64,000 bases of DNA from Candidatus Sulfotelmatobacter sp. (GCA_035498555.1 DATKAB010000053.1:62608-126607), one strand, 5' to 3'. Counted from the first letter of the stretch, positions 33,994 to 50,196 are shown. The notes: generated by a model from the letters alone, not told the origin. Numbers and translations: made by a program.

Positions 33994-34124
33994 CTCTCCC
34001 GCTCCGGCAGGCCTAGCCTACTTGGGCCTGCGGTTCGCGATCTCCCGAGGAACCCCCATCTCACCTGGCTACCCGGTTCCAACGCGCTTCCCGCCCCTCA
34101 CCGCCGATTACCGGGAGTATCGCC

Positions 34125-35930
34125 ATGGTCGCCTCGCGCCGCCTTGCCAGTTTCGCGTTCGCCGCGCTCACGTCGCTGGGGGTCGCGCATTCGTCCTTCG
34201 CGAACTCCCTTCCACCCGGGCCGGTGGTCGGGCATCCCGCCGACTACGTGATCATCACTCCTTCGGCCTACGCCAGCGAGTTCCAGCGTCTCGCGAAATT
34301 CAAGACCCACGTCGGCGTTCCGGCGCTGGTCAAGACCCTCGAGGCGATCGTGACCGAGTATCCGGGCGGGCGAGACGACGCCGAACGCGTCCGGATGTTC
34401 CTGCAGGACGCGAGCCAGCAGTGGAACACGCACTGGGCGTTGCTCGGCGGTCTGCCGCCCGAGGTGCCGGCGCGGCGCGTGCACAGCACGTTCTTCGGCG
34501 GCCTGGACTTCGTGACCGATCTCTACTTCGGATCGCTCCACGGCACCTGGGACGCCAACGGCAACGGGGTCTTCGGCGAGGGCTACGTCTCGAGCGCCGA
34601 TCCGGGCGACAGCGTGGATCTCAGCGTGCAAGTCTACATCGGGCGCGCGCCGGTCAGGAGCGTCGCCGAAGCGCGAGACTTCGTGAACAAGACGATCGCC
34701 GCCAGCGCCGTGCCGTTCGATCCGACGCCGCATGCCGCGTTGCTGGCCGCCGACGCGTTGTTCCCTCACCCCTGGAACGGAACCGATCCGTTGAGCCTCG
34801 ACGGCGCGGACTTCACCGAGGTCGTGCGCAGCGTGATCGTGGGGACGCCCGGCGCCGGCGTGACGCGCCTCTACCAGAACTGGAATGATCCGCGCTGGCC
34901 GGACGCGCAGCCGCTTTCGCGTGCCTCCCTGCTCTCCGAGCTTCGCGCCGGCACGGATTTCTATCTCGACGTGAACTTCGGCGGCCCCCTCGTGATGACG
35001 GCGGCCAATGATTCGGTGACCGCCGCGGACCTCGATGCGCTGGGCGACGCGGCCCGTTCCACACACGCCTGGATGACCGGCGCGTGGTGCGGCAACTTTG
35101 AGGGCGATTGCCTGGCCGCTCACTTCGTGCGAGGCGCGAGCGGCGGGGCGGTGACCTGCGTGGCCGCATCGACCGAGTTGTTCTTCACGCCGCTCCTCAA
35201 CTATCAGCAGGGCTACGCGGCCGCGCTCTACCCGCCGGCCTCGGATCCCGAGGGGGAGGCGCTGGCGGCGGCCAAGGCGCCGTTCATCGACTACTCGGCC
35301 TACGACGGCGTCCATCGCACCACCGAGATGGCCCTCAACCTGATCGGCGATCCGGGGCTGCAGATCCGTCCGGTCGAACCGCTGGCACTCGAAGCCGATT
35401 TCTCCTCGGCCGTCTCGGTCGGCAGCCCGGGCTTCGAGGTGGTCGTCACCGCAGCCGGCGCGCCGCTCGCCCGCGCGCGTGTGGCGGTGGAATTCGGCGA
35501 CGAAGCGCTGGCGGTGTCGATGACCGATATTACGGGCCGGGCGCAGGTCGAGCTGACCCCGGCGCACGCGGGCGTCGAGGCCCTGACGGTCACGGCACTC
35601 GACGGCAGCCGCCTCGAGGGCGCCGTTCAGGTGAACGAGGCGCTCGCGGTCGAGCGGGGCGGTTCCCCGGCGACGCGCCTCGACGCCCCGCTGCCCAATC
35701 CGGCGTTCGCGAACGCGCGGCTCTCGGGGGAAGCGGCATCGAATGGTTCGCTCGCGCTCTTCGATGTGGGCGGACGGCGGCTGCGCGAGTTCGCCATCGC
35801 TCCGGGCCGGTTCGATCTGCGCTGGGATCTCGGCGACGCGAGCGGACGTCGCGTGCCCGCGGGATTGTACTTCGCGCGGCTCTCCTCCGGCCCGGCGACC
35901 CTCGTTCAGCGACTGCTGGTCACGCGCTGA
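34125..35930 (+). CDS. peptidase C25 (gingipain/PorU-like) family protein with T9SS C-terminal sorting domain
   Basis: Signal peptide; N-terminal DYVIITPSAYASEF..KFK pattern as in C25 peptidases; His (LHG) and Cys (AWCGNF) candidate catalytic residues. The last ~80 aa (LPNPAFANA ... FDVGGRRLR ... WDLGDASGRRVPAGLYFARL) match the type-A T9SS/FlgD-Ig-like sorting domain consensus. Confidence 0.6.
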   Translation: MVASRRLASFAFAALTSLGVAHSSFANSLPPGPVVGHPADYVIITPSAYASEFQRLAKFKTHVGVPALVKTLEAIVTEYPGGRDDAERVRMFLQDASQQWNTHWALLGGLPPEVPARRVHSTFFGGLDFVTDLYFGSLHGTWDANGNGVFGEGYVSSADPGDSVDLSVQVYIGRAPVRSVAEARDFVNKTIAASAVPFDPTPHAALLAADALFPHPWNGTDPLSLDGADFTEVVRSVIVGTPGAGVTRLYQNWNDPRWPDAQPLSRASLLSELRAGTDFYLDVNFGGPLVMTAANDSVTAADLDALGDAARSTHAWMTGAWCGNFEGDCLAAHFVRGASGGAVTCVAASTELFFTPLLNYQQGYAAALYPPASDPEGEALAAAKAPFIDYSAYDGVHRTTEMALNLIGDPGLQIRPVEPLALEADFSSAVSVGSPGFEVVVTAAGAPLARARVAVEFGDEALAVSMTDITGRAQVELTPAHAGVEALTVTALDGSRLEGAVQVNEALAVERGGSPATRLDAPLPNPAFANARLSGEAASNGSLALFDVGGRRLREFAIAPGRFDLRWDLGDASGRRVPAGLYFARLSSGPATLVQRLLVTR

Positions 35931-38522: not shown

Positions 38523-39526
38523 GAGTGCTGGTGGCGGATTCGCCCGCGCTGAGCGCGAGCCGCATGCGCACTGCCGCCGAGGGATTGGCGCTGCGCGGAC
38601 ACCAGGTGATCCGGAAGCTGGAACCGGACGGCGGCCGGAATCCGCAGCTGGTGCTGGGCGCCGGTCCTCCGGCGGGTGCGGTGGTGCGCGGCTGGCGGGC
38701 GGCGGCGCACGTGGTGGTGCAGCAGATCACTCCGGCGGAGCTCAGGCGCTGGTCGCTCGTGGATCGCTGGCTATGGGCCTCGCTCTACGCCTTCGCGCTG
38801 GTCGAAGAGCGGGACGCCGGCGAGATTCGACTGCATCCGGGGCCGCTCCTCCTGGATCGAGTGGGACTCTGGTCCAGCGAGGCTCCCGCCGAACGACCGG
38901 CGGCCGAGCACGCCGATGTCGAGATCCTCGAGCGCGCCGGCGAGCGATCGATCGCGCGACATCGGAGCGCCGCGCCGCGGCGCGCGGTGTTCCTGGACCG
39001 CGACGGCACTCTGGTCGAGGAGGTGGGCTATCTCGACGATCCCGAGCGCCTGCGCCTCCTCCCCGGAGTGGCAGGGGCGCTCCGCTCGTTGCACGCCGCC
39101 GGCTTCGCCCTGGTGGTGATCTCGAACCAGTCGGGCGTCGGCCGGGGCCTCTACACCATGGCGACGGCGTACGCCGTGATGGCGCGACTTCGCTCCGAAC
39201 TCCGTCGCGAAGGCGTGGAGCTCGACGCCATCTATTTCTGTCCTCACCGTCCGGACCAGGGCTGCGCCTGTCGCAAGCCCGGCATCGAGCTGGTGGAACG
39301 CGCGGCCGAAGACCTGCTGCTCGACCCACGCCACTCGGTCATGATCGGGGACAAGCAGATCGACATCGAGACCGCGCGCCGGGCGGGCGCGGCCGGACTG
39401 CTGGTGCAGAGCGGCTACGGCGAGGAAGAGGCGCGGCGCATCGAGCAGGCCGGCGCCCCCAGGCCCGACCACGTGGCGTCGGATTTCGCCGCCGCGGCGC
39501 GCTGGGCCATCGATCGGCTCGCGTGA
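38519..39526 (+). CDS. gmhB: fusion protein: N-terminal Rossmann-like domain of unknown function plus C-terminal D-glycero-D-manno-heptose-1,7-bisphosphate phosphatase (GmhB, HAD-IIIA)
   Basis: GTG overlaps the waaF-like stop. The C-terminal 180 aa carry HAD motifs (FLDRDGTL, ISNQSG, CxCRKP, MIGDK) typical of GmhB. The N-terminal 150 aa (RVLVADSP...GHQV) resemble a truncated GT-B N-domain. Confidence 0.65.
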   Translation: MRVLVADSPALSASRMRTAAEGLALRGHQVIRKLEPDGGRNPQLVLGAGPPAGAVVRGWRAAAHVVVQQITPAELRRWSLVDRWLWASLYAFALVEERDAGEIRLHPGPLLLDRVGLWSSEAPAERPAAEHADVEILERAGERSIARHRSAAPRRAVFLDRDGTLVEEVGYLDDPERLRLLPGVAGALRSLHAAGFALVVISNQSGVGRGLYTMATAYAVMARLRSELRREGVELDAIYFCPHRPDQGCACRKPGIELVERAAEDLLLDPRHSVMIGDKQIDIETARRAGAAGLLVQSGYGEEEARRIEQAGAPRPDHVASDFAAAARWAIDRLA

Positions 39527-39527
39527 G

Positions 39528-40616
39528 CTAGCGGCTTCGATCGACGTCGAGCTGGTAGCTGGCGCCGCCTTCGACCGGCAGGTAGTGAAGCGCATAGCCC
39601 GAGACCTTGATCTGGTCGGCATCGATCCAGCGCGCTTCGATCAGATCCTGGAGCGAGGGCGGGTAGCCGCCGTGCTCGCGGCGGTAGAGGTCCAGCGCGA
39701 AGCGCAGGTCACGCATCTGCGCCGCGGCGAAGACGTCGTTGGCGGGCGGCGGGGGCGCGCTGGCCGCGATGCGTTGCGCCCCCAGCCGCAGCCCGAAGGC
39801 GAGAGCCGCGATCGCGACCGCCACCAGCGCCTCGCGGCTCCACGACAGGTCGCGCGGCACCAGCCGGCGAACGGGCGCGGACACCGGCGTGGCCGGGGCC
39901 TGGCCGGGGTCGCGGCGTCCGACCACCTCGATCCAATTGGCCTGAAGCATCCGAAACAGCGCTTCGTAGGCCTCGTACTCCGAAAGCGGCGCCGCGTCGA
40001 CGATCTCCTGCACCGTGTGCTGTCCGTCGACGATGCCGAACAGCTCGCGCTCCTCTTCGGAGAGCGGCTCGTTGGGGTCGGGCAGGTCGTGAACCCCGAG
40101 CAGCTGGTAGGGATCGCGGAACACCTGGACGAAACGCTTCTGCTCGTCCACCCGGCGGGCGGCTTCGATCAGTGCGCCCTCGATGCTCAGGCGTACGACC
40201 GGCGGCGCGTTCCAGCGGCTGTGCGGATCGAACCGATAGGTGCCGTCCTCCCAGCGCACCAGTCGCGTGAGATCGTCGAGGATCTGGCGCTCGACGTAGC
40301 CGGCCAGCTCGTCGGCGTCGAGGTACCGGCCGTTGAGGAGCAGATCCTCGACGTCGCGGTTGGACTCGCGCTGAATCGTCAGGATGCCGCGGTATTGCTC
40401 ATCCGACAGCCGGTGCACCTTGTGGAGGAACACCAGCAGCGGGTCGTCCTTCTGCTGGCCGCGATTGCGGGTGGAGACGATGCGCCCTTCCTGAACGTAG
40501 ACCACTGCGCGCTCGGTGTTCCACTCCATCATCAGACAGCCGGTCTTCTTCTGGCTGGCCACCAGCTGGAGGATCTCGGTGGCCGAGAAGTCGCGAAGAT
40601 TTCCCTGGAGCGCCAT
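39528..40616 (-). CDS. DUF4388 (PATAN-like) domain protein
   Basis: N-terminus GNLRDFSATEILQLVASQKKTGCLMM matches the DUF4388 domain. GAGG ribosome-binding site upstream; start lies 7 nt downstream of the stop of the preceding minus-strand gene. Confidence 0.6.
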   Translation of the reverse strand: MALQGNLRDFSATEILQLVASQKKTGCLMMEWNTERAVVYVQEGRIVSTRNRGQQKDDPLLVFLHKVHRLSDEQYRGILTIQRESNRDVEDLLLNGRYLDADELAGYVERQILDDLTRLVRWEDGTYRFDPHSRWNAPPVVRLSIEGALIEAARRVDEQKRFVQVFRDPYQLLGVHDLPDPNEPLSEEERELFGIVDGQHTVQEIVDAAPLSEYEAYEALFRMLQANWIEVVGRRDPGQAPATPVSAPVRRLVPRDLSWSREALVAVAIAALAFGLRLGAQRIAASAPPPPANDVFAAAQMRDLRFALDLYRREHGGYPPSLQDLIEARWIDADQIKVSGYALHYLPVEGGASYQLDVDRSR

Positions 40617-40623
40617 GGATGCC

Positions 40624-42672
40624 TCAGGCCGCTGCGACGTTGGAGGAGTGGCTGGTGGCCTGCACGCTGCGGCTCCGGGTCGGCGCCGCGAGGACGGCCG
40701 CCTGATACTGAGCGCGGTTCACCAGACGCGAGTAGCCGATGATGGACCACGAATAGAGCATGCCCCAGGTGGCGAGCCGCACCACCCACGGCAGGTCGCT
40801 GGGCGTCACCGCGAGCCGCGGCTCGAACGCGAACGGGGGCGCCGCGACCAGCTGGCTGCCCAGCATCCCGAGCGCGATCGTCAGCATGAGTATCGGTGAG
40901 AACGCGCGCCTGAAGCTGATCAGGCCGAAGCCGGGGATCAACACAGCGAGCGCGCCACGCAGCAGATTCTGAGTGCGGTCCACGCGCCTCTTGCGATTGG
41001 CGAGCAGCACGCGCGCCACCTCGGGAGCGTCGGCGGACTTCTCGGCTGCCGCGCAGGCCGGGCACAGGGCCAGCTCGCGACGCCGCTCGGCGCAGCGGCG
41101 GCACACGGTTCGACCACAGTTGCTGCAGGCGCGCAGCGGCAGCTGGCGCTGCTGCTGGAGGCCGGCGAGCACGCCCAGCACGGCCACCCCGAGCACGGCG
41201 AGCGAGAAACCCCAGCCGCGAGTCTCGAGTCGGTCGCGCCAGCCGGGAGGCAGCGCGCCGCGCGTGCTCCCGGAGGGCACCGAGCCCGAAAGCGAGCGCC
41301 AGAAGCGATTGGGCGCGATCCACTGGTCCACCAGCGCCAGGTACCCGTCTTCCGTGCTCTGGCCCTGATAGGTCTTGACCATCTCGAAGTTGATGGCCGA
41401 GGCGCGAGTGAGCGCATCGCTCGCAGCGCGGAAATCGAAGCGCTGCGTGTAGAGCTGGGAGATGTTGAACCACGCCGCCCCGTTGGACGGGTTCTGCGAA
41501 GTCGCACGGCGATAGAAGTCGAAGGCCTCGTCGCCGCGGCCCTGGCTCATCATGACGTTGCCGAGGTTGTTGAGCAGCCGGTCGTCGTTCGGCCACAGGT
41601 GGAGCGCGTGGCGATAGAGCCGCTCGGCGGCGGGCACGTCGCCGGCCCGCCTCGCCATCCAGCCGGCGGCGAAGGCCAGGAACGGATTCTCGGGCTCGCG
41701 GGCCGAGAGCTGCTCCAGCTCCTCGGCGCGCGCCGGCGAGGCCGGCTCGGTTTCGACCATCGCCACGCCGTGGAGCGGACCGCGGGCGGCGTCGAGCGGC
41801 AGGGTCAGGCGATCGAGTGCGTCCACCACCAGCGGCATTACCGCGAGGCTCGCGACCAGCAGGATGAACACGATTCGTTCGCGCGCCTGTAGCAGCGGCC
41901 AGAGCAGGGCGAGGAACAGGACCACCGGCAGCGCCGGACCCAGGCCGAGGAAGAACGGCATCGCCAGCAGCGCCCAGGACCAGGCTTCGGCGCTGGACGC
42001 GGTCACCAGTCGGCGCAGCGGTTCTCTCCAGGAATGGCGCAGCTCGGCCTGATGCACGGCGACCACCAGCGCGCCGGTGGCGAGAATGCCGAGGAACAGC
42101 GCCTGCAGGATGGCGTAGATCGTGTTCGCGCACAGCGCGAGCTGGAGGAGAAAGTTCTGGCGCGCCAGCTCGAGCACGCTGGCGTAGCGGAGCAGCGCCT
42201 GGCTCGGCTCGTGGAGCAGACTCCACGACGCGAGCGTGAGGTGCGGGGTGACGAAGGTCGGGTCGAGCTCCGCCGCGCCGCGCACCAGCCGGGCCGCTTC
42301 GTCGAGACTGCCGGACTCGTGAGCGAGGATTCCGCGGCGATAGAAGAGTCGTGCCTCGAGCGGGAGCGAGGCGATGTGATGGCGCTCCTTGTACTGCAAC
42401 CAGCCGGTGAGGTCGGTGAGCGGCGGTTGCGCTTCGTCGGCGGCGACCGCCGCAGGCGGCGGAGCGGGGGTTGTGGTCGCGGGAGCGGTATCGGCCGGAT
42501 GCTCGGTGGTGCCGGGAACGTTCGGCGCCGATCCCGCCGCGGACGCCCCGAGCGCCGTGGCGAGCACCAGCACGAGAGCGACCCCGGCCTGCCGAAGACG
42601 CCGGCCGGAGAGCCCAGATTGTCCGGCCGCTCGGCTCCTGAGCGCGCTCCCGCCGTCCAGCCATTCGAACAT
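40624..42672 (-). CDS. polytopic membrane protein with TPR repeats and a zinc-ribbon (CxxC x3) motif
   Basis: Minus-strand ORF with a signal-anchor, a Pro/Thr-rich linker, several TM helices, TPR-like repeats (AERLYRHALHLWPNDDRLLNNLGNV...) and CSNCGRTVCRRCAERRRELALCPAC, followed by 2 C-terminal TMs. The start is taken at the ATG (MFEWLDGG) with an AGGGA ribosome-binding site; a longer GTG start at 42717 is possible. Confidence 0.55.
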   Translation of the reverse strand: MFEWLDGGSALRSRAAGQSGLSGRRLRQAGVALVLVLATALGASAAGSAPNVPGTTEHPADTAPATTTPAPPPAAVAADEAQPPLTDLTGWLQYKERHHIASLPLEARLFYRRGILAHESGSLDEAARLVRGAAELDPTFVTPHLTLASWSLLHEPSQALLRYASVLELARQNFLLQLALCANTIYAILQALFLGILATGALVVAVHQAELRHSWREPLRRLVTASSAEAWSWALLAMPFFLGLGPALPVVLFLALLWPLLQARERIVFILLVASLAVMPLVVDALDRLTLPLDAARGPLHGVAMVETEPASPARAEELEQLSAREPENPFLAFAAGWMARRAGDVPAAERLYRHALHLWPNDDRLLNNLGNVMMSQGRGDEAFDFYRRATSQNPSNGAAWFNISQLYTQRFDFRAASDALTRASAINFEMVKTYQGQSTEDGYLALVDQWIAPNRFWRSLSGSVPSGSTRGALPPGWRDRLETRGWGFSLAVLGVAVLGVLAGLQQQRQLPLRACSNCGRTVCRRCAERRRELALCPACAAAEKSADAPEVARVLLANRKRRVDRTQNLLRGALAVLIPGFGLISFRRAFSPILMLTIALGMLGSQLVAAPPFAFEPRLAVTPSDLPWVVRLATWGMLYSWSIIGYSRLVNRAQYQAAVLAAPTRSRSVQATSHSSNVAAA

Positions 42673-42684
42673 GCGTGCCATCCC

Positions 42685-42713
42685 TTGACAGTGCCGGAGT
42701 GCCCACCTAGCGT
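42685..42713 (+). promoter_or_regulatory. candidate sigma70-like promoter (TTGACA-17 nt-TAGCGT) in the divergent region upstream of asnS
   Basis: Perfect -35 hexamer, 17-nt spacer and a TAnnnT -10-like hexamer about 120 nt upstream of the asnS ATG. Confidence 0.3.
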
Positions 42714-42835
42714 GCACCGCGTCCCATTCGTTATCGGCCCTTCTCGGCAGCCGCTTTACGCGAGTTTCCCCGGGGCCGCCGAAGCCCGCCCGGCCTCGCG
42801 CCGGCCGGACAACTCACGATCCAAGGACCCCTGGA

Positions 42836-44155
42836 ATGAGCGCCACGCCCCTGACCGGCACGCTGCCCTGGATCCGCATCGCCGAAGCTGCGCGCCACGT
42901 CGGACAAAGCGTCGAGGTCCGAGGCTGGCTTACCCACCGGCGATCGAGCGGCAAGATCCAGTTCCTGGTGGTTCGTGATGGGAGCGGGGTGTTGCAGTGC
43001 GTCGCCGGGCGCGAGGACCTGACGCCGGAGGCCTGGCAGGCCTCGAGCGAGCTGGGCCAGGAATCCGCGCTGGTGGTGCGGGGGGATCTACGCGCCGACC
43101 CGCGCTCGCCGGGTGGGGTCGAGATGGGGCTCCGGTCGGTCGAGGTGGTTCAGCGCGCGGAAGGGTTTCCGATTTCGCCCAAGGAGCACGGCACCGAGTT
43201 CCTCATGGATCACCGGCACCTCTGGCTGCGCTCTTCCCGGCAGCAGGCCATCCTGCGCATCCGCGCCGAAGTGATTCGCGCCTTTCGCGATTTCATGGAC
43301 GGCGAAGGCTTCCTATTGCTCGACGCGCCGATCTTCACGCCCAATGCCTGCGAAGGCACGACCACTCTGTTCGAGACCAGCTACTTCGATCAGAAGGCCT
43401 ACCTGACTCAGAGCGGCCAGCTCTACAACGAAGCGGGGGCCGCCGCGTTCGGGCGCGTCTACTGCTTCGGGCCGGCATTCCGGGCCGAGAAGAGCAAGAC
43501 CCGCCGGCATCTGATCGAATTCTGGATGATGGAGCCCGAATGGGCGTTCGCCACCCTCGAGGACGTGATTGCGCTGGAAGAACGGTTGCTCGTCTTCACC
43601 GTCGGGCGCGTGCTCGAGAAGCGGGCCGAGGACCTGAAAACGGTGGAGCGCGACGTGAGGAAGCTCGAGGCGGTCCAGACCCCGTTTCCACGTCTTCATT
43701 ACAACGATGCGGTGAACCTCCTGCATCAGAAGGGCATGACCTTCGAATGGGGGGGCGACTTCGGTTCGCCGGACGAAACCGCGATCTCGGAGAGCTTCGA
43801 TCGTCCAGTCTTCGTCACCCATTATCCGGCCGCGGTGAAGGCCTTCTACATGGAGCCCGATCCCGCCGACCCGCGGCTGTGCCTCTCCTGCGACTGCCTG
43901 GCGCCGGAAGGGTACGGAGAAATCATCGGGGGCGGGCAGCGCAGCCCGTCGCTGGAGCTGCTCGAGCGGCGCATCGACGAGCATGGACTGCCGCAATCGG
44001 CGTTCGAGTGGTACAAGGATCTGCGCCGCTACGGCAGCGTGCCGCACTCGGGGTTCGGGATCGGGGTGGAGCGGACCCTGGCATGGATCGCGGGCCTGGA
44101 GCACGTCCGCGAGACGATTCCCTTCCCGCGCATGCTCTATCGCCTGGCACCCTGA
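42836..44155 (+). CDS. asnS: asparagine--tRNA ligase (class IIb; archaeal-type AspRS not excluded)
   Basis: OB-fold N-terminus; motif 2 [21 protein letters not shown] resembles AsnRS; motif 3 [10 protein letters not shown]; 439 aa. Confidence 0.75.
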
Positions 44156-47702: not shown

Positions 47703-47726
47703 CTCGAAGCGGAGGAGCCTCAGAAC

Positions 47727-48470
47727 ATGAGTCGTTTCATCGTTCCAATTGGGTTCGTGTCGGCTGCAGCGGTTTCGATCGCCATTTGGTACTTCCTGCC
47801 GGTTATCGGTGAACTCGGCAAGAACATCCAGCAGGGTGGCTACCTGGTGGCGGCGCTCATCATGCTCATCATCCTTCAGACCGCGTTCATCATCGAGCGC
47901 TCCTGGAGCCTTCGCAAGGCGCAGGGTCGCGGTCCGCTCACCGTGTTCCTGAACGAGGTCAGCCGCCGCCTGCACACCGGCGACGTGGACGGCGCCATCA
48001 AGGCCTGCGCGACTCAGCGGGGCTCGGCGGCGAACGTCATCCGCGCCGGCCTCGAGCGCTACCAGTCGCTGCGGGCAGAAAACGCGTCGCGCGAGAAGAT
48101 CGTGGCCGAGACCCAGGCCGCGATCGCGGAAGCCAACGGCCTCGAAGTGCCGTTGCTCGAGCGCAATCTGATCGCGTTGTCGACCATCGCATCGATTTCG
48201 ACCATGATCGGACTGCTGGGAACGGTGGTCGGAATGATCCGTTCGTTCGCCGCCCTCGGCCACACCGGCGCGGTGGACGCCACCAAGCTCGCCATCGGTA
48301 TCTCCGAGGCGCTCATCAATACCGCCGGCGGCCTGATCTGCGCGATTGCCGGAATCGTCGCCTATAACGTGTTCGTGACGCGCGTGGACGGCTTCAACTA
48401 TATGATGGATGAAGCCTCGTACGAGGCGGTCCAGCTGCTGGCCGCGTCGGCGCCCAGCGAGAAGAAGTAG
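47727..48470 (+). CDS. exbB: MotA/TolQ/ExbB proton-channel family protein
   Basis: 3-TM MotA/TolQ/ExbB architecture with the conserved C-terminal TM pair (TMIGLLGTVVGMI..F). Confidence 0.8.
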   Translation: MSRFIVPIGFVSAAAVSIAIWYFLPVIGELGKNIQQGGYLVAALIMLIILQTAFIIERSWSLRKAQGRGPLTVFLNEVSRRLHTGDVDGAIKACATQRGSAANVIRAGLERYQSLRAENASREKIVAETQAAIAEANGLEVPLLERNLIALSTIASISTMIGLLGTVVGMIRSFAALGHTGAVDATKLAIGISEALINTAGGLICAIAGIVAYNVFVTRVDGFNYMMDEASYEAVQLLAASAPSEKK

Positions 48471-48488
48471 GGGAGAGGGGCTCGAGCC

Positions 48489-48962
48489 ATGCTCAAGAAG
48501 ATGCGCCGCATCGGCATCGCCATCGACATGACGCCGATGGTCGATGTGGCGTTCCTGCTCCTGATCTTCTTCATGTGTACCACCCAGTTCAAGCCGCCCG
48601 AAAAGGACAAGATCACGCTGCCGGAATCGAGCTCCGAGGCCAAGTCTCCGGAGTCCGACATCATCACGATCGCGGTCACCAAGCTGCCTTCGGTGCGCGT
48701 GGTCTGGCATCAGGGCGGTCAGGAAGTGAACCGCGAGGTTCCCGCCGACAAGGTGGCGTCAGACCTTGGCAATGTCCTGAGCAACGCGCGTCTCGCCAAC
48801 CCGGCGGCCCGAATGATCGTCAAAATGGACAAGGATGCCCCGTACGGGGTGATGGCCGACATGATGGGCGCGCTGCAGGAAGCCAAGGCGCCGCGCTTCA
48901 ACGTACAGACCGAGCTCGAGGGCTCGGCCAATCCATTCAAGAAAGCCGCGGCCAAGCCATAG
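48489..48962 (+). CDS. exbD: ExbD/TolR biopolymer transport protein
   Basis: IDMTPMVDVAFLLLIFFM TM segment with the conserved Asp; periplasmic domain. Confidence 0.8.
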   Translation: MLKKMRRIGIAIDMTPMVDVAFLLLIFFMCTTQFKPPEKDKITLPESSSEAKSPESDIITIAVTKLPSVRVVWHQGGQEVNREVPADKVASDLGNVLSNARLANPAARMIVKMDKDAPYGVMADMMGALQEAKAPRFNVQTELEGSANPFKKAAAKP

Positions 48963-48985
48963 GTCGCTGGAGGAGGTGACGTCCC

Positions 48986-49480
48986 ATGGGTGCGGTAGAC
49001 ACCCCACAACCCAGACAAGGCAAGAAGAAGGGCAAGGGCTTCAGCCGCCCCAAGCGTCGCGTCGGTGTTCGCATCGACATGACGCCGATGGTGGACGTGG
49101 CGTTCCTGCTCCTGATCTTCTTCATGGTGACCACCGTGTTCCGGACTCCTCAGGCGCTCGAGATCAACCTGCCGCCCGACAAGGACGTCAAGGTCGAGAT
49201 CGCCCAATCCAAGGTGCTGAGCGTGCGGGTGCTCGGCGACGACCGTGCCTATTTCAAGCGCGGCGACGATCCATGGGCGCGCACCGACGTTCCGGGACTA
49301 AAAAAGGTGTTCGCGACGTACAAGGGGAACAAGGACCTGGTGGTCGTGATCAACATCGACCGTGAGTCGAAGTTCCACAACATGGTGGACATCATCGACG
49401 AGCTCGACCTGGCGAATCTGACGCGGTTCTCGCTGGGCACGCTGAAGCCGGAAGAGAAGAAGGAGGTCGAGTCGCTGTGA
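48986..49480 (+). CDS. exbD: ExbD/TolR biopolymer transport protein (second copy)
   Basis: Same IDMTPMVDVAFLLLIFFM motif; paralog of the preceding gene. Confidence 0.8.
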   Translation: MGAVDTPQPRQGKKKGKGFSRPKRRVGVRIDMTPMVDVAFLLLIFFMVTTVFRTPQALEINLPPDKDVKVEIAQSKVLSVRVLGDDRAYFKRGDDPWARTDVPGLKKVFATYKGNKDLVVVINIDRESKFHNMVDIIDELDLANLTRFSLGTLKPEEKKEVESL

Positions 49481-50196
49481 GCCAGCCGAACCTCACGCTT
49501 TACGAGTTCATGCCCTACGGGGCGCCCGAACTCAAGGAGGTCGCCAAGAAGTACATGACGCGGGCGATCGGCACTGCCGCGCTCGCGTGGCTGGTCGTGT
49601 TCGGCCTGTCCTTCGGCACTTCCGAGCTCCTCAAGCACCGTCCTCACGAGACCAGCGTGATCGTGGTGCCCTATCGCGAGCTGGCGGCGCCGCCGCCATT
49701 GACTCAGAACGAGCCTCCGCCGCAGGTGGCCATCGCCCAGCCGGTCGCGCCGCCGACCATGGGCGTCGCCGTGCCGGTCCCGGACGCCGAGGCCCCGCCC
49801 GAGCAGACCATCGCCACGCAGGAGGAGATCGCGCAGACCGCGCCTGGAATTTCCAAGGGCGACGGCGACCAGATCGTGGTCCAGCCGCCCTCCGAGGACG
49901 AGTTGCCGAAGCTCGGCGAGTACGTCTACGTCGAGGAGCTTCCCGAGGCGATCACCAAGGTCCCGCCCGAGTATCCGGACATCGCCCGCCAGGCGAACGT
50001 CGATGGCACCGTGCTCATGCAGGTGCTGGTCGGCAAGGATGGCAAGGTCAAGGACGTCAAGGTGATGAAGTCCGTCGCCATGCTCGATGCCGCGGCCATC
50101 ACCGCCGTGAAGCAGTGGATCTTCAAGCCCGCCCTTTCCAACAACAAGCCGGTGGCGGTGTGGGTGGCGGTGCCGATGAAGTTCACGCTCAACTAG
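49477..50196 (+). CDS. tonB: energy transducer TonB
   Basis: GTG overlaps the exbD stop; N-terminal TM, Pro-rich spacer, C-terminal TonB domain (YPDIARQANVDGTV ... KFTL). Confidence 0.7.
   Translation: MSQPNLTLYEFMPYGAPELKEVAKKYMTRAIGTAALAWLVVFGLSFGTSELLKHRPHETSVIVVPYRELAAPPPLTQNEPPPQVAIAQPVAPPTMGVAVPVPDAEAPPEQTIATQEEIAQTAPGISKGDGDQIVVQPPSEDELPKLGEYVYVEELPEAITKVPPEYPDIARQANVDGTVLMQVLVGKDGKVKDVKVMKSVAMLDAAAITAVKQWIFKPALSNNKPVAVWVAVPMKFTLN

Follow-up and report, generated by a model that had tools for sequence, protein, structure and literature searches.

PATAN domains act, in the cases studied, as output modules that localise at the inner membrane and bind PilB1 and PilC or divisome proteins (bioRxiv 10.1101/2021.06.11.447907; PMC7380572). 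[quoted passage not shown] Cytoplasmic zinc-ribbon domains carried by the membrane proteins GltJ and ZitP are docking switches, used as protein-docking modules in motility, pilus and polarity systems (PMC11135422). In LapB a single N-terminal membrane helix precedes nine cytoplasmic TPRs, and contiguous with these is a C-terminal rubredoxin domain that bears two CxxC motifs (PMC11046580). The gene pair described here combines known parts in an undescribed arrangement.

The gene pair and its neighbourhood

The window, which is the whole 64,000-nucleotide stretch of DNA analysed, carries the two genes, called A and B below, on its minus strand:

40624-42672, minus strand: gene A, encoding a 682-aa polytopic inner-membrane protein; stop codon at 40624-40626 (ORF list, GC3, homolog length)
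40617-40626, minus strand: stop codon of A and spacer before the start of B (direct sequence reading)
39528-40616, minus strand: gene B, encoding a 362-aa bitopic membrane protein; stop codon at 39528-39530 (ORF list, GC3)
42673-42835: divergent A/asnS intergenic region, presumed site of promoters (sequence)

Both are real coding genes, with the codon-position GC of real genes (GC3 0.87, in a genome of about 70% GC). The two minus-strand ORFs proposed by the first-pass annotation are thus confirmed by the ORF list and by codon-position GC. The large one had been started at 42717 and given 680 aa; the ORF is real, and its longest form has a GTG at that position (697 aa), but translation more likely begins at the ATG at 42672, which matches the database protein P0001 (99% identical, 682 aa). 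Gene A ends with a TGA (40624-40626), seven nucleotides, ggcatcc, separate it from the ATG of B (40616), and a GAGG sequence overlaps this stop codon, so that the 7-nt gap and ribosome-binding site stand as first described. This arrangement suggests translational coupling, and the A-to-B gaps of relatives are similarly short. The pair had also been called the only minus-strand unit of the first 50 kb, which is consistent with a composition-based ORF screening in which not every gap was annotated; the other minus-strand ORFs listed overlap plus-strand genes or resemble shadow frames.

The location between a lipopolysaccharide (LPS)/heptose cluster and asnS is likewise retained. On one side are a GT9 heptosyltransferase and, directly downstream of the pair, a gmhB-like HAD phosphatase; on the other is asnS, divergent from gene A in every lineage examined. 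Searches of the intergenic region for a sigma-70-like promoter, a terminator or an Rfam match found none. The wider region includes bamA, lpxD, lpxK, an msbA-like ABC transporter and two GT9 heptosyltransferases, with an exbB-exbD-exbD-tonB cluster nearby, and this outer-membrane/LPS context persists in deep lineages. Such neighbours stand in place of pilus or secretion genes, none of which was found near the pair; neither a GspE/PilB-type Walker A nor a prepilin motif was detected in the window and 78 related loci (930 kb, largely overlapping). No PADLOC anti-phage defence model matched A or B at E <= 0.01.

All taxonomically placeable relatives belong to Candidatus Eisenbacteria, an uncultured phylum, and the pair is restricted to it. 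The two genes occur together in each member of the phylum that was sampled. Wherever a related contig continues beyond A, B follows directly downstream, in the most divergent lineages too and at identities to the window copy as low as 28-37% for A and 31-47% for B; the pairing proposed from a single locus is thus conserved in relatives. The region is itself syntenic across the phylum (lpxK-side genes, gmhB, B and A, asnS, exbBD-tonB), which makes the adjacency weaker as stand-alone evidence of a functional link. This restriction to one phylum and the phylum-wide synteny had escaped the first reading.

A and B might accordingly be functionally independent, their adjacency being merely the inherited gene order of a strongly syntenic phylum. 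About 20 kb around the pair are collinear between the window and relatives with a 77-79% identical AsnS, and both asnS and exbBD-tonB remain near the pair even in the deepest lineages, so that conserved order is not specific to A and B. Independence is nevertheless improbable in our view, since the A-to-B gap is about 7-50 nt, or an overlap, in nearly all loci (the widest, about 100-175 nt, being found in the most divergent lineages), and since A and B are never separated while the neighbourhood varies elsewhere: PBP, TPR and STAS genes occur in some loci and not in others, UbiA is inserted in one locus (L077) and a peptidase C25 gene in the window. The distance matrices of A and B also co-vary more than those of any other neighbouring gene pair (raw r = 0.92; partial r = 0.54 after control for AsnS, HAD and GT9). 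Finally, A and B both reside in the inner membrane, and the charges of their cytoplasmic domains are complementary.

Architecture of protein A

The following segments of protein A were delineated:

42538-42672, minus strand: residues 1-45, basic N-terminus and hydrophobic segment (hydropathy, alignment, N-terminal net charge of +3.7 over 47 homologs)
42412-42537, minus strand: residues 46-87, Pro/Thr/Ala-rich spacer of varying length (alignment; low model confidence)
42157-42411, minus strand: residues 88-172, conserved N-terminal helical TPR-like domain, predicted periplasmic (model, alignment)
41803-42156, minus strand: residues 173-290, first membrane block (hydropathy, alignment, model, charge)
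41338-41766, minus strand: residues 303-445, about four canonical TPR repeats, predicted periplasmic
41143-41214, minus strand: residues 487-510, membrane helix between the TPR and Cys-rich domains (hydropathy 2.14, model helix)
41053-41127, minus strand: residues 516-540, six-Cys motif CxxC-x4-CxxC-x9-CxxC in a very basic segment, predicted cytoplasmic (alignment, charge, model)
40723-40968, minus strand: residues 569-650, second membrane block (hydropathy, alignment, model, charge)
40627-40722, minus strand: residues 651-682, basic tail with an -Ala-Ala-COOH end, candidate ssrA-like degron (homolog C-termini, charge)

Profile and fold searches assign A to no known family, in keeping with the unusual architecture first noted. 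Its Pro/Thr-rich spacer, several hydrophobic helices and TPR repeats are all recovered by hydropathy, alignment and profiles, and the AlphaFold2 model, confident overall (pLDDT 85.4, pTM 0.81), falls below a pLDDT of 50 at residues 42-77. The N-terminus, originally read as a signal-anchor, is probably a cleavable Sec signal peptide instead, with an ASA/A site in the window copy (the slash marks the cleavage point), since the hydrophobic region of homologs closes with AxA-type sites (VRA/Q, ARA/Q, AIA/Q); cleavage is deduced here from hydropathy and alignment, which reveal no lipobox Cys in or after this region.

The helices of the N-terminal domain (residues 88-172) are modelled with a pLDDT above 90. 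They give weak TPR_2/TPR_16 matches and match consensus-TPR structures at E = 5e-9, and the domain has six invariant residues (W91, R108, G114, D137, P143, W150). Profile-level TPR matches are confined to about residues 340-445, and A has in total about six TPR-like repeats in two blocks. The first membrane block comprises membrane helices 174-206 and 263-289, a basic helix 208-222, cytoplasmic according to the predicted topology, and a probable re-entrant hairpin at residues 225-256 with invariant P239, G243, G245 and P249. It also contains invariant polar residues (Q177, N183, H213, E217, E265, R266), has loop charges of +2.4 and +1.7, and has no Pfam or PDB match. The second block contains an interface element with an invariant P580-G581-x-G583 and helices 591-608 and 629-650, separated by a short acidic loop. 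A has about five membrane helices plus re-entrant elements, and this membrane core has no match among solved structures. The charge distribution over 47 homologs fits a single topology, with external TPR modules and with the Cys domain and the tail internal. Taken together, hydropathy, charge counts and model predict periplasmic TPR modules and a cytoplasmic Cys domain and tail, which would put the zinc ribbon, whose location the first-pass annotation left to be checked, in the cytoplasm.

The Cys cluster between hydrophobic segments, annotated initially as a zinc ribbon, is present as described, but its spacers are x4 and x9 rather than x5 and x8. The six Cys are invariant in all 47 aligned homologs, their spacing is identical in 120 of 120 among the matches listed, and divergent members also carry the motif. 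The surrounding segment (residues 509-568) has a net charge of +8.3, and the alignment contains no conserved His or Cys upstream of the motif. The domain is modelled as a small, zinc-ribbon-like or treble-clef-like beta-hairpin and is putatively metal-binding, zinc being the presumed metal. Weak matches to zinc-binding RING, FYVE and B-box models recur, those of the RING type in homologs as well, although all remain below gathering thresholds (best profiles zf-UDP, 17 bits for a cut-off of 27, and zf-RING_10, 15.5 bits for a cut-off of 31; RING-type models matched only below threshold). A RING binuclear treble-clef finger was rejected, since there are six Cys instead of eight cross-brace ligands and no profile above threshold.

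The six Cys could alternatively hold an iron-sulfur cluster instead of zinc, the pair being then a redox or oxygen sensor. The best PDB sequence match of the domain is indeed the large subunit of the corrinoid/iron-sulfur protein, in a stretch that we take to ligate its [4Fe-4S] cluster and in which, as in the first three Cys of A, the spacing is Cx2Cx4C; six invariant Cys also exceed the needs of one zinc site. This match is however not significant (E = 0.11), and both the hairpin of the model and the recurring zinc-binding matches argue for zinc, which makes an iron-sulfur cluster very improbable.

The C-terminal tail (net charge +3.3) ends in Ala-Ala in 120 of 120 among the homologs listed (LAA in 43, AAA in 30) and in most divergent members too, a universal feature not mentioned in the first reading. 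ClpXP and FtsH recognise C-termini of this ssrA-like kind; the tail is on this basis a candidate degron, and by analogy proteolysis may control how much of A is present.

This tail is also one of the features evoking a LapB (YciM)-like regulator of envelope homeostasis, a membrane TPR/Cys-metal protein that would monitor LPS or outer-membrane assembly; A would then deliver either itself or a biosynthetic enzyme to FtsH or ClpXP, with B as its anti-adaptor or sensor partner. Like LapB, A is anchored in the membrane and has both TPR repeats and a CxxC metal domain (PMC11046580), its conserved Ala-Ala end suggests proteolytic control, and the pair lies in a conserved outer-membrane/LPS region (bamA, lpxD, lpxK, GT9s, gmhB-like), also in deep lineages. 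The sequence profile of A, however, matches no LapB model or structure, and the TPRs of LapB are cytoplasmic and contiguous with its rubredoxin whereas those of A, beyond a hydrophobic helix and behind a signal peptide, are predicted to be periplasmic. Moreover, the cluster also contains unrelated genes (proS, asnS and the peptidase C25 gene), which makes context a weak guide. We regard this explanation as unlikely.

Architecture of protein B

Protein B (626 homologs; AlphaFold2 model with a pLDDT of 82) is built of four segments:

40122-40616, minus strand: residues 1-165, PATAN/DUF4388 domain with a helical insertion at residues 59-119
39906-40121, minus strand: residues 166-237, strongly acidic winged-helix domain
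39768-39842, minus strand: residues 259-283, single membrane helix after a basic linker (hydropathy, alignment, model, charge)
39531-39749, minus strand: residues 290-362, pseudopilin-like (GspG-fold) domain, a long helix followed by a beta-hairpin, predicted periplasmic

The initial assignment to DUF4388 holds: residues 4-160 match PF14332 at E = 7.1e-26 (91.1 bits for a cut-off of 25), and all 45 aligned homologs match this family too. The helical insertion is possibly GspE-N/MshEN-like; MshEN-type domains bind c-di-GMP and have tandem 24-residue RLGxx(L/V/I)(L/V/I)xxG... motifs. B is a membrane protein, not a soluble one. Its bitopic nature, with a membrane helix at about 259-283 and a pseudopilin-like periplasmic domain, had been overlooked. 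The linker before the helix has a net charge of +3.0, and Glu262, at the cytoplasmic end of the helix, is near-invariant.

B has the hydrophobic alpha-1 helix and following globular alpha/beta domain of a pilin fold. Its score with Pfam T2SSG (PF08334) is 12.6 bits, below the cut-off of 21; of the 45 homologs, 27 match T2SSG weakly, at best with E = 1.7e-4. No N-terminal class III leader with its prepilin-peptidase site (cleavage after the Gly of G-F/M-T-L-x-E) is present in B, the consensus before the helix being R-x4-R-E-L, and B would thus be neither processable nor polymerisable like a pilin. A PatA-type response regulator was also rejected, given that no REC match was found at E <= 1 and that the C-terminal half is otherwise built. 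The literature searched contained no description of this architecture.

The order of modules in B (cytoplasmic winged helix, linker, one membrane helix, periplasmic domain) resembles that of ToxR/CadC-type regulators, and early work on PATAN proteins reportedly suggested DNA binding. B might then be a ToxR-like membrane-tethered transcription factor, with its winged helix on DNA, a periplasmic sensor, and A as a ToxS-like modulator. The net charge of the winged helix, -10.8 +/- 1.3 over 72 residues in 45 homologs, is however incompatible with ordinary DNA binding, and no DNA-binding family was found above threshold, TrmB reaching only E = 0.01-0.1; a preprint on Synechocystis also argues that DNA binding by PATAN is unlikely (bioRxiv 10.1101/2021.06.11.447907). 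Such a role therefore appears scarcely credible. The charges of the winged helix (-10.8) and of the Cys region of A (+8.3) are both conserved and complementary.

Proposed function and comparison with known systems

The genes, their domains, their conservation, their restriction to one phylum and their strict adjacency are all direct observations. Tentatively, and with less than even confidence, we favour a two-subunit inner-membrane complex of A and B, in which periplasmic TPR and pilin-like modules would be coupled to a cytoplasmic PATAN output. The pair, a putative relay, probably conveys information across the membrane. Translational coupling would keep the amounts of A and B in a fixed ratio, and the two would assemble in the membrane, with A as a polytopic scaffold and B as a membrane-tethered PATAN adaptor. 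The periplasmic modules would bind an envelope partner, while the basic Cys domain of A would dock on the acidic winged helix or the PATAN part of B, A and B being thus presumed to be in contact. By analogy with cyanobacterial PatA-type proteins, the PATAN domain of B would be the output and bind a membrane machine, possibly the ATPase and platform of a type IV pilus or type II secretion system, or components of the divisome; the Ala-Ala end would make the abundance of A tunable by ClpXP/FtsH-type proteolysis. By analogy, the candidate targets are the motor of a type IV pilus or of type II secretion, the divisome, and envelope homeostasis. The strict adjacency, the co-varying distance matrices and the complementary charges speak for this reading; the phylum-wide synteny and the presence of LPS and outer-membrane genes near the pair in place of pilus or secretion genes speak against it. 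The first-pass idea of an uncharacterised envelope-associated signalling or assembly system survives, as neither a known family nor an unconserved pairing was found.

A bolder and rather speculative proposal is an undescribed trans-envelope coupling device, in which an uncleaved, tethered pseudopilin-fold domain would be hard-wired to a PATAN output, together with a TPR/six-Cys partner carrying an Ala-Ala degron. If true, it would be a phylum-wide core module through which the state of the envelope would act on cell polarity or on a cytoplasmic machine, and the first membrane-integral, two-component context for PATAN.

Several known families resemble A in part. With PilF/PilW/TadD pilus proteins, its likeness is generic to TPR proteins: these are outer-membrane lipoproteins whereas A is an integral inner-membrane protein, and this identity was rejected (TIGR02521 34.6 bits for a cut-off of 154; no lipobox Cys), as was the PEP-CTERM TPR protein PrsT (TIGR02917 31.2 bits versus 312.2, over a generic TPR stretch only). 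LapB of Enterobacteria regulates LPS assembly and, like A, is a membrane-anchored protein in which TPR repeats are joined to a metal-binding domain of the CxxC type; LPS biosynthesis genes surround gene A, and the link to proteolysis, FtsH for LapB, is deduced from the tail for A. A differs by its signal peptide, by its about five membrane helices plus re-entrant elements, by six Cys in place of four, and by TPRs and Cys domain placed on opposite sides of a membrane helix. It has no sequence relationship with LapB models or structures beyond TPR, and an identity with LapB/YciM was rejected on architecture (signal peptide, two TPR blocks, intervening helix, three CxxC).

RING-type domains, namely the N-terminal RING of plant cellulose synthase and the Prok-RING families, offer another comparison for the Cys domain. 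The six Cys of A are spaced so as to align with the final three pairs of ligands in the cellulose synthase RING ('aCneCgfpaCrpC...CpqC'), but A has six of the eight ligand positions, which would leave one metal site incomplete per monomer. GltJ (Myxococcus) and ZitP (Caulobacter) also carry a small Cys-ligated beta-hairpin domain at the cytoplasmic face of an envelope-spanning membrane protein; theirs are four-Cys N-terminal ribbons on bitopic proteins whereas A has six Cys in an internal loop of a polytopic one. The likeness is one of analogy.

On the side of B, GspG (EpsG, PulG) and type IV pilins have a short leader before the hydrophobic helix, where B has about 260 cytoplasmic residues instead. 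With known PATAN proteins (PixE, PixG, PatA; Myxococcus), B shares the full-length, significant domain and its helical insertion. It has no receiver (REC) domain and is therefore not of the PatA response-regulator type; it further departs from these proteins by its own membrane anchor, its winged helix and periplasmic pilin-like domain, and its constant pairing with protein A.

Genes A and B and the layout of their products

The adjacent minus-strand genes A and B, which encode respectively a 682-residue polytopic membrane protein and a 362-residue membrane protein with a PATAN (DUF4388) domain, are best read as coding for a two-subunit inner-membrane complex. The elements concerned are as follows:

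40624-42672, minus strand: A
40627-40632, minus strand: last two codons of A (Ala-Ala)
39528-40616, minus strand: B

Two open reading frames span 39528-42717, and their codon-position GC (GC3 0.87, GC2 0.45-0.54) has the pattern of genuine genes for this genome, the G+C content of the window being about 70%. As for the remaining minus-strand ORFs listed, they either overlap genes on the plus strand or show the composition of a shadow frame. The longest possible ORF of A begins with a GTG at 42717; the most likely start is the ATG at 42672, since a database protein of 99% identity is also 682 residues long. The stop codon of A (TGA, 40624-40626) is followed after 7 nt by the ATG of B at 40616, with a GAGG motif overlapping this stop, so that both the two real genes and the tight linkage claimed by the first-pass annotation are borne out. 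The stretch 39000-43200 gave no match to Rfam, no sigma-70-like promoter and no intrinsic terminator.

The topology of A was deduced from hydropathy, an alignment of 47 homologs and loop charges averaged over these 47. Net charges are positive for the N-terminus (+3.7), the loops 207-231 (+2.4) and 257-266 (+1.7), the Cys region 509-568 (+8.3) and the C-terminal tail (+3.3), and negative for the spacer (-2.2), the TPR domain (-3.2) and the loop 609-628 (-1.1). Taken together, these data support a layout with periplasmic TPR modules and a cytoplasmic Cys domain and tail, from which we infer the overall topology listed below; the side of the membrane facing the proposed zinc ribbon is thus predicted to be cytoplasmic. 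The AlphaFold2 model of A is confident and compact (pLDDT 85.4, pTM 0.81).

Predicted layout of protein A (residue numbers)
N-terminus: cleavable signal peptide (AxA-type sites in homologs)
After the signal peptide: variable Pro/Thr spacer
88-172: periplasmic TPR-like domain
174-206: membrane helix
208-222: basic cytoplasmic helix
225-256: probable re-entrant hairpin, with invariant P239, G243, G245 and P249
263-289: membrane helix
303-445: about four periplasmic TPRs
487-510: membrane helix
516-540: cytoplasmic six-Cys domain, followed by a long basic helix
After the basic helix: interface element with an invariant PGxG
C-terminal part: two further membrane helices, then a cytoplasmic tail

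The N-terminal hydrophobic segment had initially been described as a signal-anchor. The segment itself stands, and the AxA-type sites fit a cleavable signal peptide instead. Within the first membrane helix, the polar residues Q177 and N183 (42126-42144 in the window) are invariant among the 47 homologs, as are H213, E217, E265 and R266 at the cytoplasmic interface. Their invariance suggests a functional site, in the membrane or at its interface, and speaks against a passive anchor.

Predicted layout of protein B (residue numbers; AlphaFold2 model of pLDDT 82 unless stated)
4-160: DUF4388/PATAN domain, significant profile match (E = 7e-26)
59-119: helical insertion in the PATAN core
166-237: winged helix
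Between the winged helix and the hydrophobic helix: basic linker, modelled with low confidence
259-283: single long hydrophobic helix
290-362: C-terminal domain, a long helix plus a beta-hairpin

The PATAN match secures the earlier assignment of B to the DUF4388 proteins. A weak Pfam T2SSG match at residues 293-328, found in 27 of 45 homologs (best E = 1.7e-4), and a weak PulG match in a profile search of the PDB (E = 1.1) are two independent sequence signals that agree with a predicted pilin-like fold of the C-terminal domain. About 260 cytoplasmic residues precede the hydrophobic helix, where neither the alignment nor a motif scan revealed a prepilin-peptidase site; the domain thus has a predicted pilin fold and cannot act as a pilin. 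The winged helix has a strikingly acidic character (net charge -10.8 +/- 1.3 over 45 homologs), which argues against DNA binding and led us to reject a ToxR-like transcription factor.

Family searches, six-Cys domain and C-terminus of A

Significant matches of A are to TPR models alone, at residues 340-445. PDB sequence profiles returned nothing beyond TPR proteins, and the non-TPR parts searched alone gave no significant match, in keeping with the initial statement that A has no obvious family assignment. LapB, PilF/PilW, PrsT, BcsC, PgaA and other TPR-containing families were considered as identities for A, all of them falling far below threshold. A PADLOC search gave no anti-phage defence system matching the pair, a weak MAD8 match (16 bits versus 175) being disregarded.

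With the full A profile searched against 1.8 billion representatives, further full-length divergent members were retrieved at 225-317 bits, giant multi-repeat TPR proteins flooding the results below about 300 bits. These divergent members are P0282, from a 2.69-Mb Eisenbacteria contig, and the metagenome or assembly proteins P0291, P0297, P0323, P0357 and P0360. Once the TPR regions were removed, the profile retrieved only 14 proteins, every one in the A family. An apparent short relative, P0407, was set aside as a frameshifted copy in a long-read assembly. At locus L078, a long-read metagenome contig has the gene block around A and B in broken form, with several genes split, asnS among them in two pieces, and A truncated with a poly-Arg/Ala tail; this short A is most likely an assembly frameshift error, not a short paralog.

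The six Cys of A are invariant, with the same 25-residue spacing in 120/120 homologs among the matches listed, and they are kept in the most divergent members. Searches for a zinc-finger family gave recurrent RING, FYVE and B-box matches, all sub-threshold. The domain aligns to the last three ligand pairs of the cellulose synthase RING, which would leave one metal site complete and the other half-formed in the A monomer. Its best PDB sequence match is the corrinoid/iron-sulfur protein large subunit, which is not significant (E = 0.11). Within the domain (residues 516-540; 41053-41127 in the window), the first three Cys have the Cx2Cx4C spacing of the aligned stretch of this subunit, which we take to be its [4Fe-4S] motif. 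From this resemblance, the metal bound could be iron-sulfur instead of zinc.

A also ends in Ala-Ala in 120/120 homologs among the matches listed (LAA 43, AAA 30, EAA 10, KAA 8, others), and again in most of the divergent members. Both ClpX and FtsH recognise C-termini that resemble the ssrA tag. By analogy, such an end on a predicted cytoplasmic tail suggests a built-in proteolytic control of A, possibly through constitutive ClpXP or FtsH targeting.

Distribution, pairing and neighbourhood

Where homologs of A and B carry a source name, it is mostly Candidatus Eisenbacteria. Scanning one genome per GTDB species by pattern gave 71 loci, nearly all with this label; the same block also occurs in a few soil bins under labels of other phyla. 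The Eisenbacteria-type pair is carried under such labels (Udaeobacter, Terriglobales, Saccharimonadaceae/Saccharimonadales, Verrucomicrobiia, Limnocylindria, Methylomirabilota) at L012, L018, L019, L057, L059, L060, L072 and L074, L059 ending before B; mis-binning or mislabelling probably accounts for these contigs. The pair is confined to a single uncultured phylum.

The window is a large envelope-biogenesis region, with the following genes in order:

bamA, lpxD and lpxK: first in the region
msbA-like ABC transporter: after lpxK
GT9 heptosyltransferase, then a peptidase C25 gene: after the msbA-like transporter
proS, a second GT9 and a gmhB-like HAD phosphatase: before B and A
B and A: opposite strand, after the gmhB-like phosphatase
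asnS, a PBP_like_2 protein and a 597-aa TPR protein: after A
47703-50193: exbB-exbD-exbD-tonB
TolC-like / HlyD / ABC / MacB set: last in the region

Relatives show the same gene order. The synteny is deep, with asnS divergent upstream of A, exbBD-tonB nearby and gmhB downstream, so that adjacency alone is no proof of a functional link between A and B. Other neighbours are gained and lost across relatives and A and B are never separated, which argues against purely inherited gene order. The proposed pairing held when its co-occurrence was checked: a B homolog directly follows A in every locus whose contig reaches past the end of A. This includes divergent lineages such as L063-L065 (A 33-37%, B 47% identity), L074 (about 31% each), L073, where B is beyond the reach of tblastn and visible by translation, and the P0357 and P0282 loci. 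The correlation of distance matrices is highest for A and B among the neighbour pairs tested (raw r = 0.92; partial r = 0.54 with AsnS, HAD and GT9 controlled, next best pair 0.37), a supportive result short of a formal test. Compared with the window copy, related loci have a median identity of 46% for A, 62% for B, 77% for AsnS and 53% for GT9, and both A and B are under ordinary purifying selection.

The exbB-exbD-exbD-tonB genes are never more than a few kb from asnS and the pair in the lineages examined (the window, L001, L003, L076 and L077). Between asnS and exbB, L001, L003 and L004 hold PBP_like_2, a TPR gene of about 600 aa and two STAS genes; the PBP_like_2 and TPR genes have the same place in the window. 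The C25 (gingipain-family) gene, at 34017-35927 between the GT9 heptosyltransferase and proS, is replaced by a 732-aa protein without Pfam match in L003 and by nothing in L001, so that this position varies within a block that is conserved elsewhere. In the gmhB-like ORF (38561-39523), about 140 N-terminal residues have no Pfam match, HAD matches covering just residues 146-311 of the translated stretch; its product is 184-194 aa long in the deep-branching L076 and L077 and 350-366 aa in closer relatives. Just one base separates the stop of this gene (39524-39526, plus strand) from that of the converging B (39528-39530, minus strand), and no terminator-like structure was found between them.

Since LPS, outer-membrane and TonB genes make up the conserved neighbourhood, the main rival to the reading proposed here is an envelope-homeostasis role, in which the pair would act like LapB without being LapB. 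Genes for pili or secretion are lacking around the pair; motif scans of the window and 78 related loci gave neither a GspE/PilB-type Walker A nor prepilin leaders.

A putative envelope-wiring complex and its known counterparts

In the two-subunit complex that we favour, the periplasmic binding modules, namely two TPR blocks in A and a pilin-fold domain in B, would face the envelope, as the predicted topology implies. In the cytoplasm, A has a basic Cys domain and B an acidic winged helix; their charges are complementary, and the two domains may contact each other. The PATAN domain of B would then be the output, and the Ala-Ala tail would permit turnover of A. The cautious initial reading, an uncharacterised envelope-associated pair, is thereby supported and sharpened. 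Its parts are known domains (PATAN, winged helix, pilin fold, TPR repeats, Cys-metal finger); no description of this architecture and pairing was found in the literature searched, nor any functional information on Eisenbacteria bearing on the locus.

PATAN domains occur widely among environmental bacteria, in thousands of proteins, and a single genome often has many copies; to our knowledge they are understood only in a few cyanobacterial regulators. Candidatus Eisenbacteria is a common, uncultured lineage of soils and sediments with almost no functional biology. A PATAN domain that a membrane helix links to a periplasmic domain of pilin fold, and that is tied to a conserved membrane partner, would provide a concrete and testable model of envelope wiring. 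Three experimental handles are available: the contact between A and B, the metal site and the candidate Ala-Ala degron. The six-Cys domain, which is invariant, and the Ala-Ala end, which is universal, are simple ones for heterologous work. As a phylum-wide signature, the pair could also serve as a marker, and it already flags several metagenome bins under other-phylum labels that hold the Eisenbacteria block.

We know of no experimentally studied PATAN domains other than those binding PilB1/PilC or ZipN/SepF. The former partners are pilus motor proteins (bioRxiv 10.1101/2021.06.11.447907) and the latter divisome proteins (PMC7380572). For the Cys domain of A, the counterparts are the cytoplasmic zinc ribbons of the envelope-spanning proteins GltJ and ZitP, which act as docking switches (PMC11135422). 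LapB, a membrane-anchored and LPS-linked protein combining TPRs with a rubredoxin domain (PMC11046580), is the obvious functional look-alike of A, but it is unmatched by A and differs from it in domain topology.
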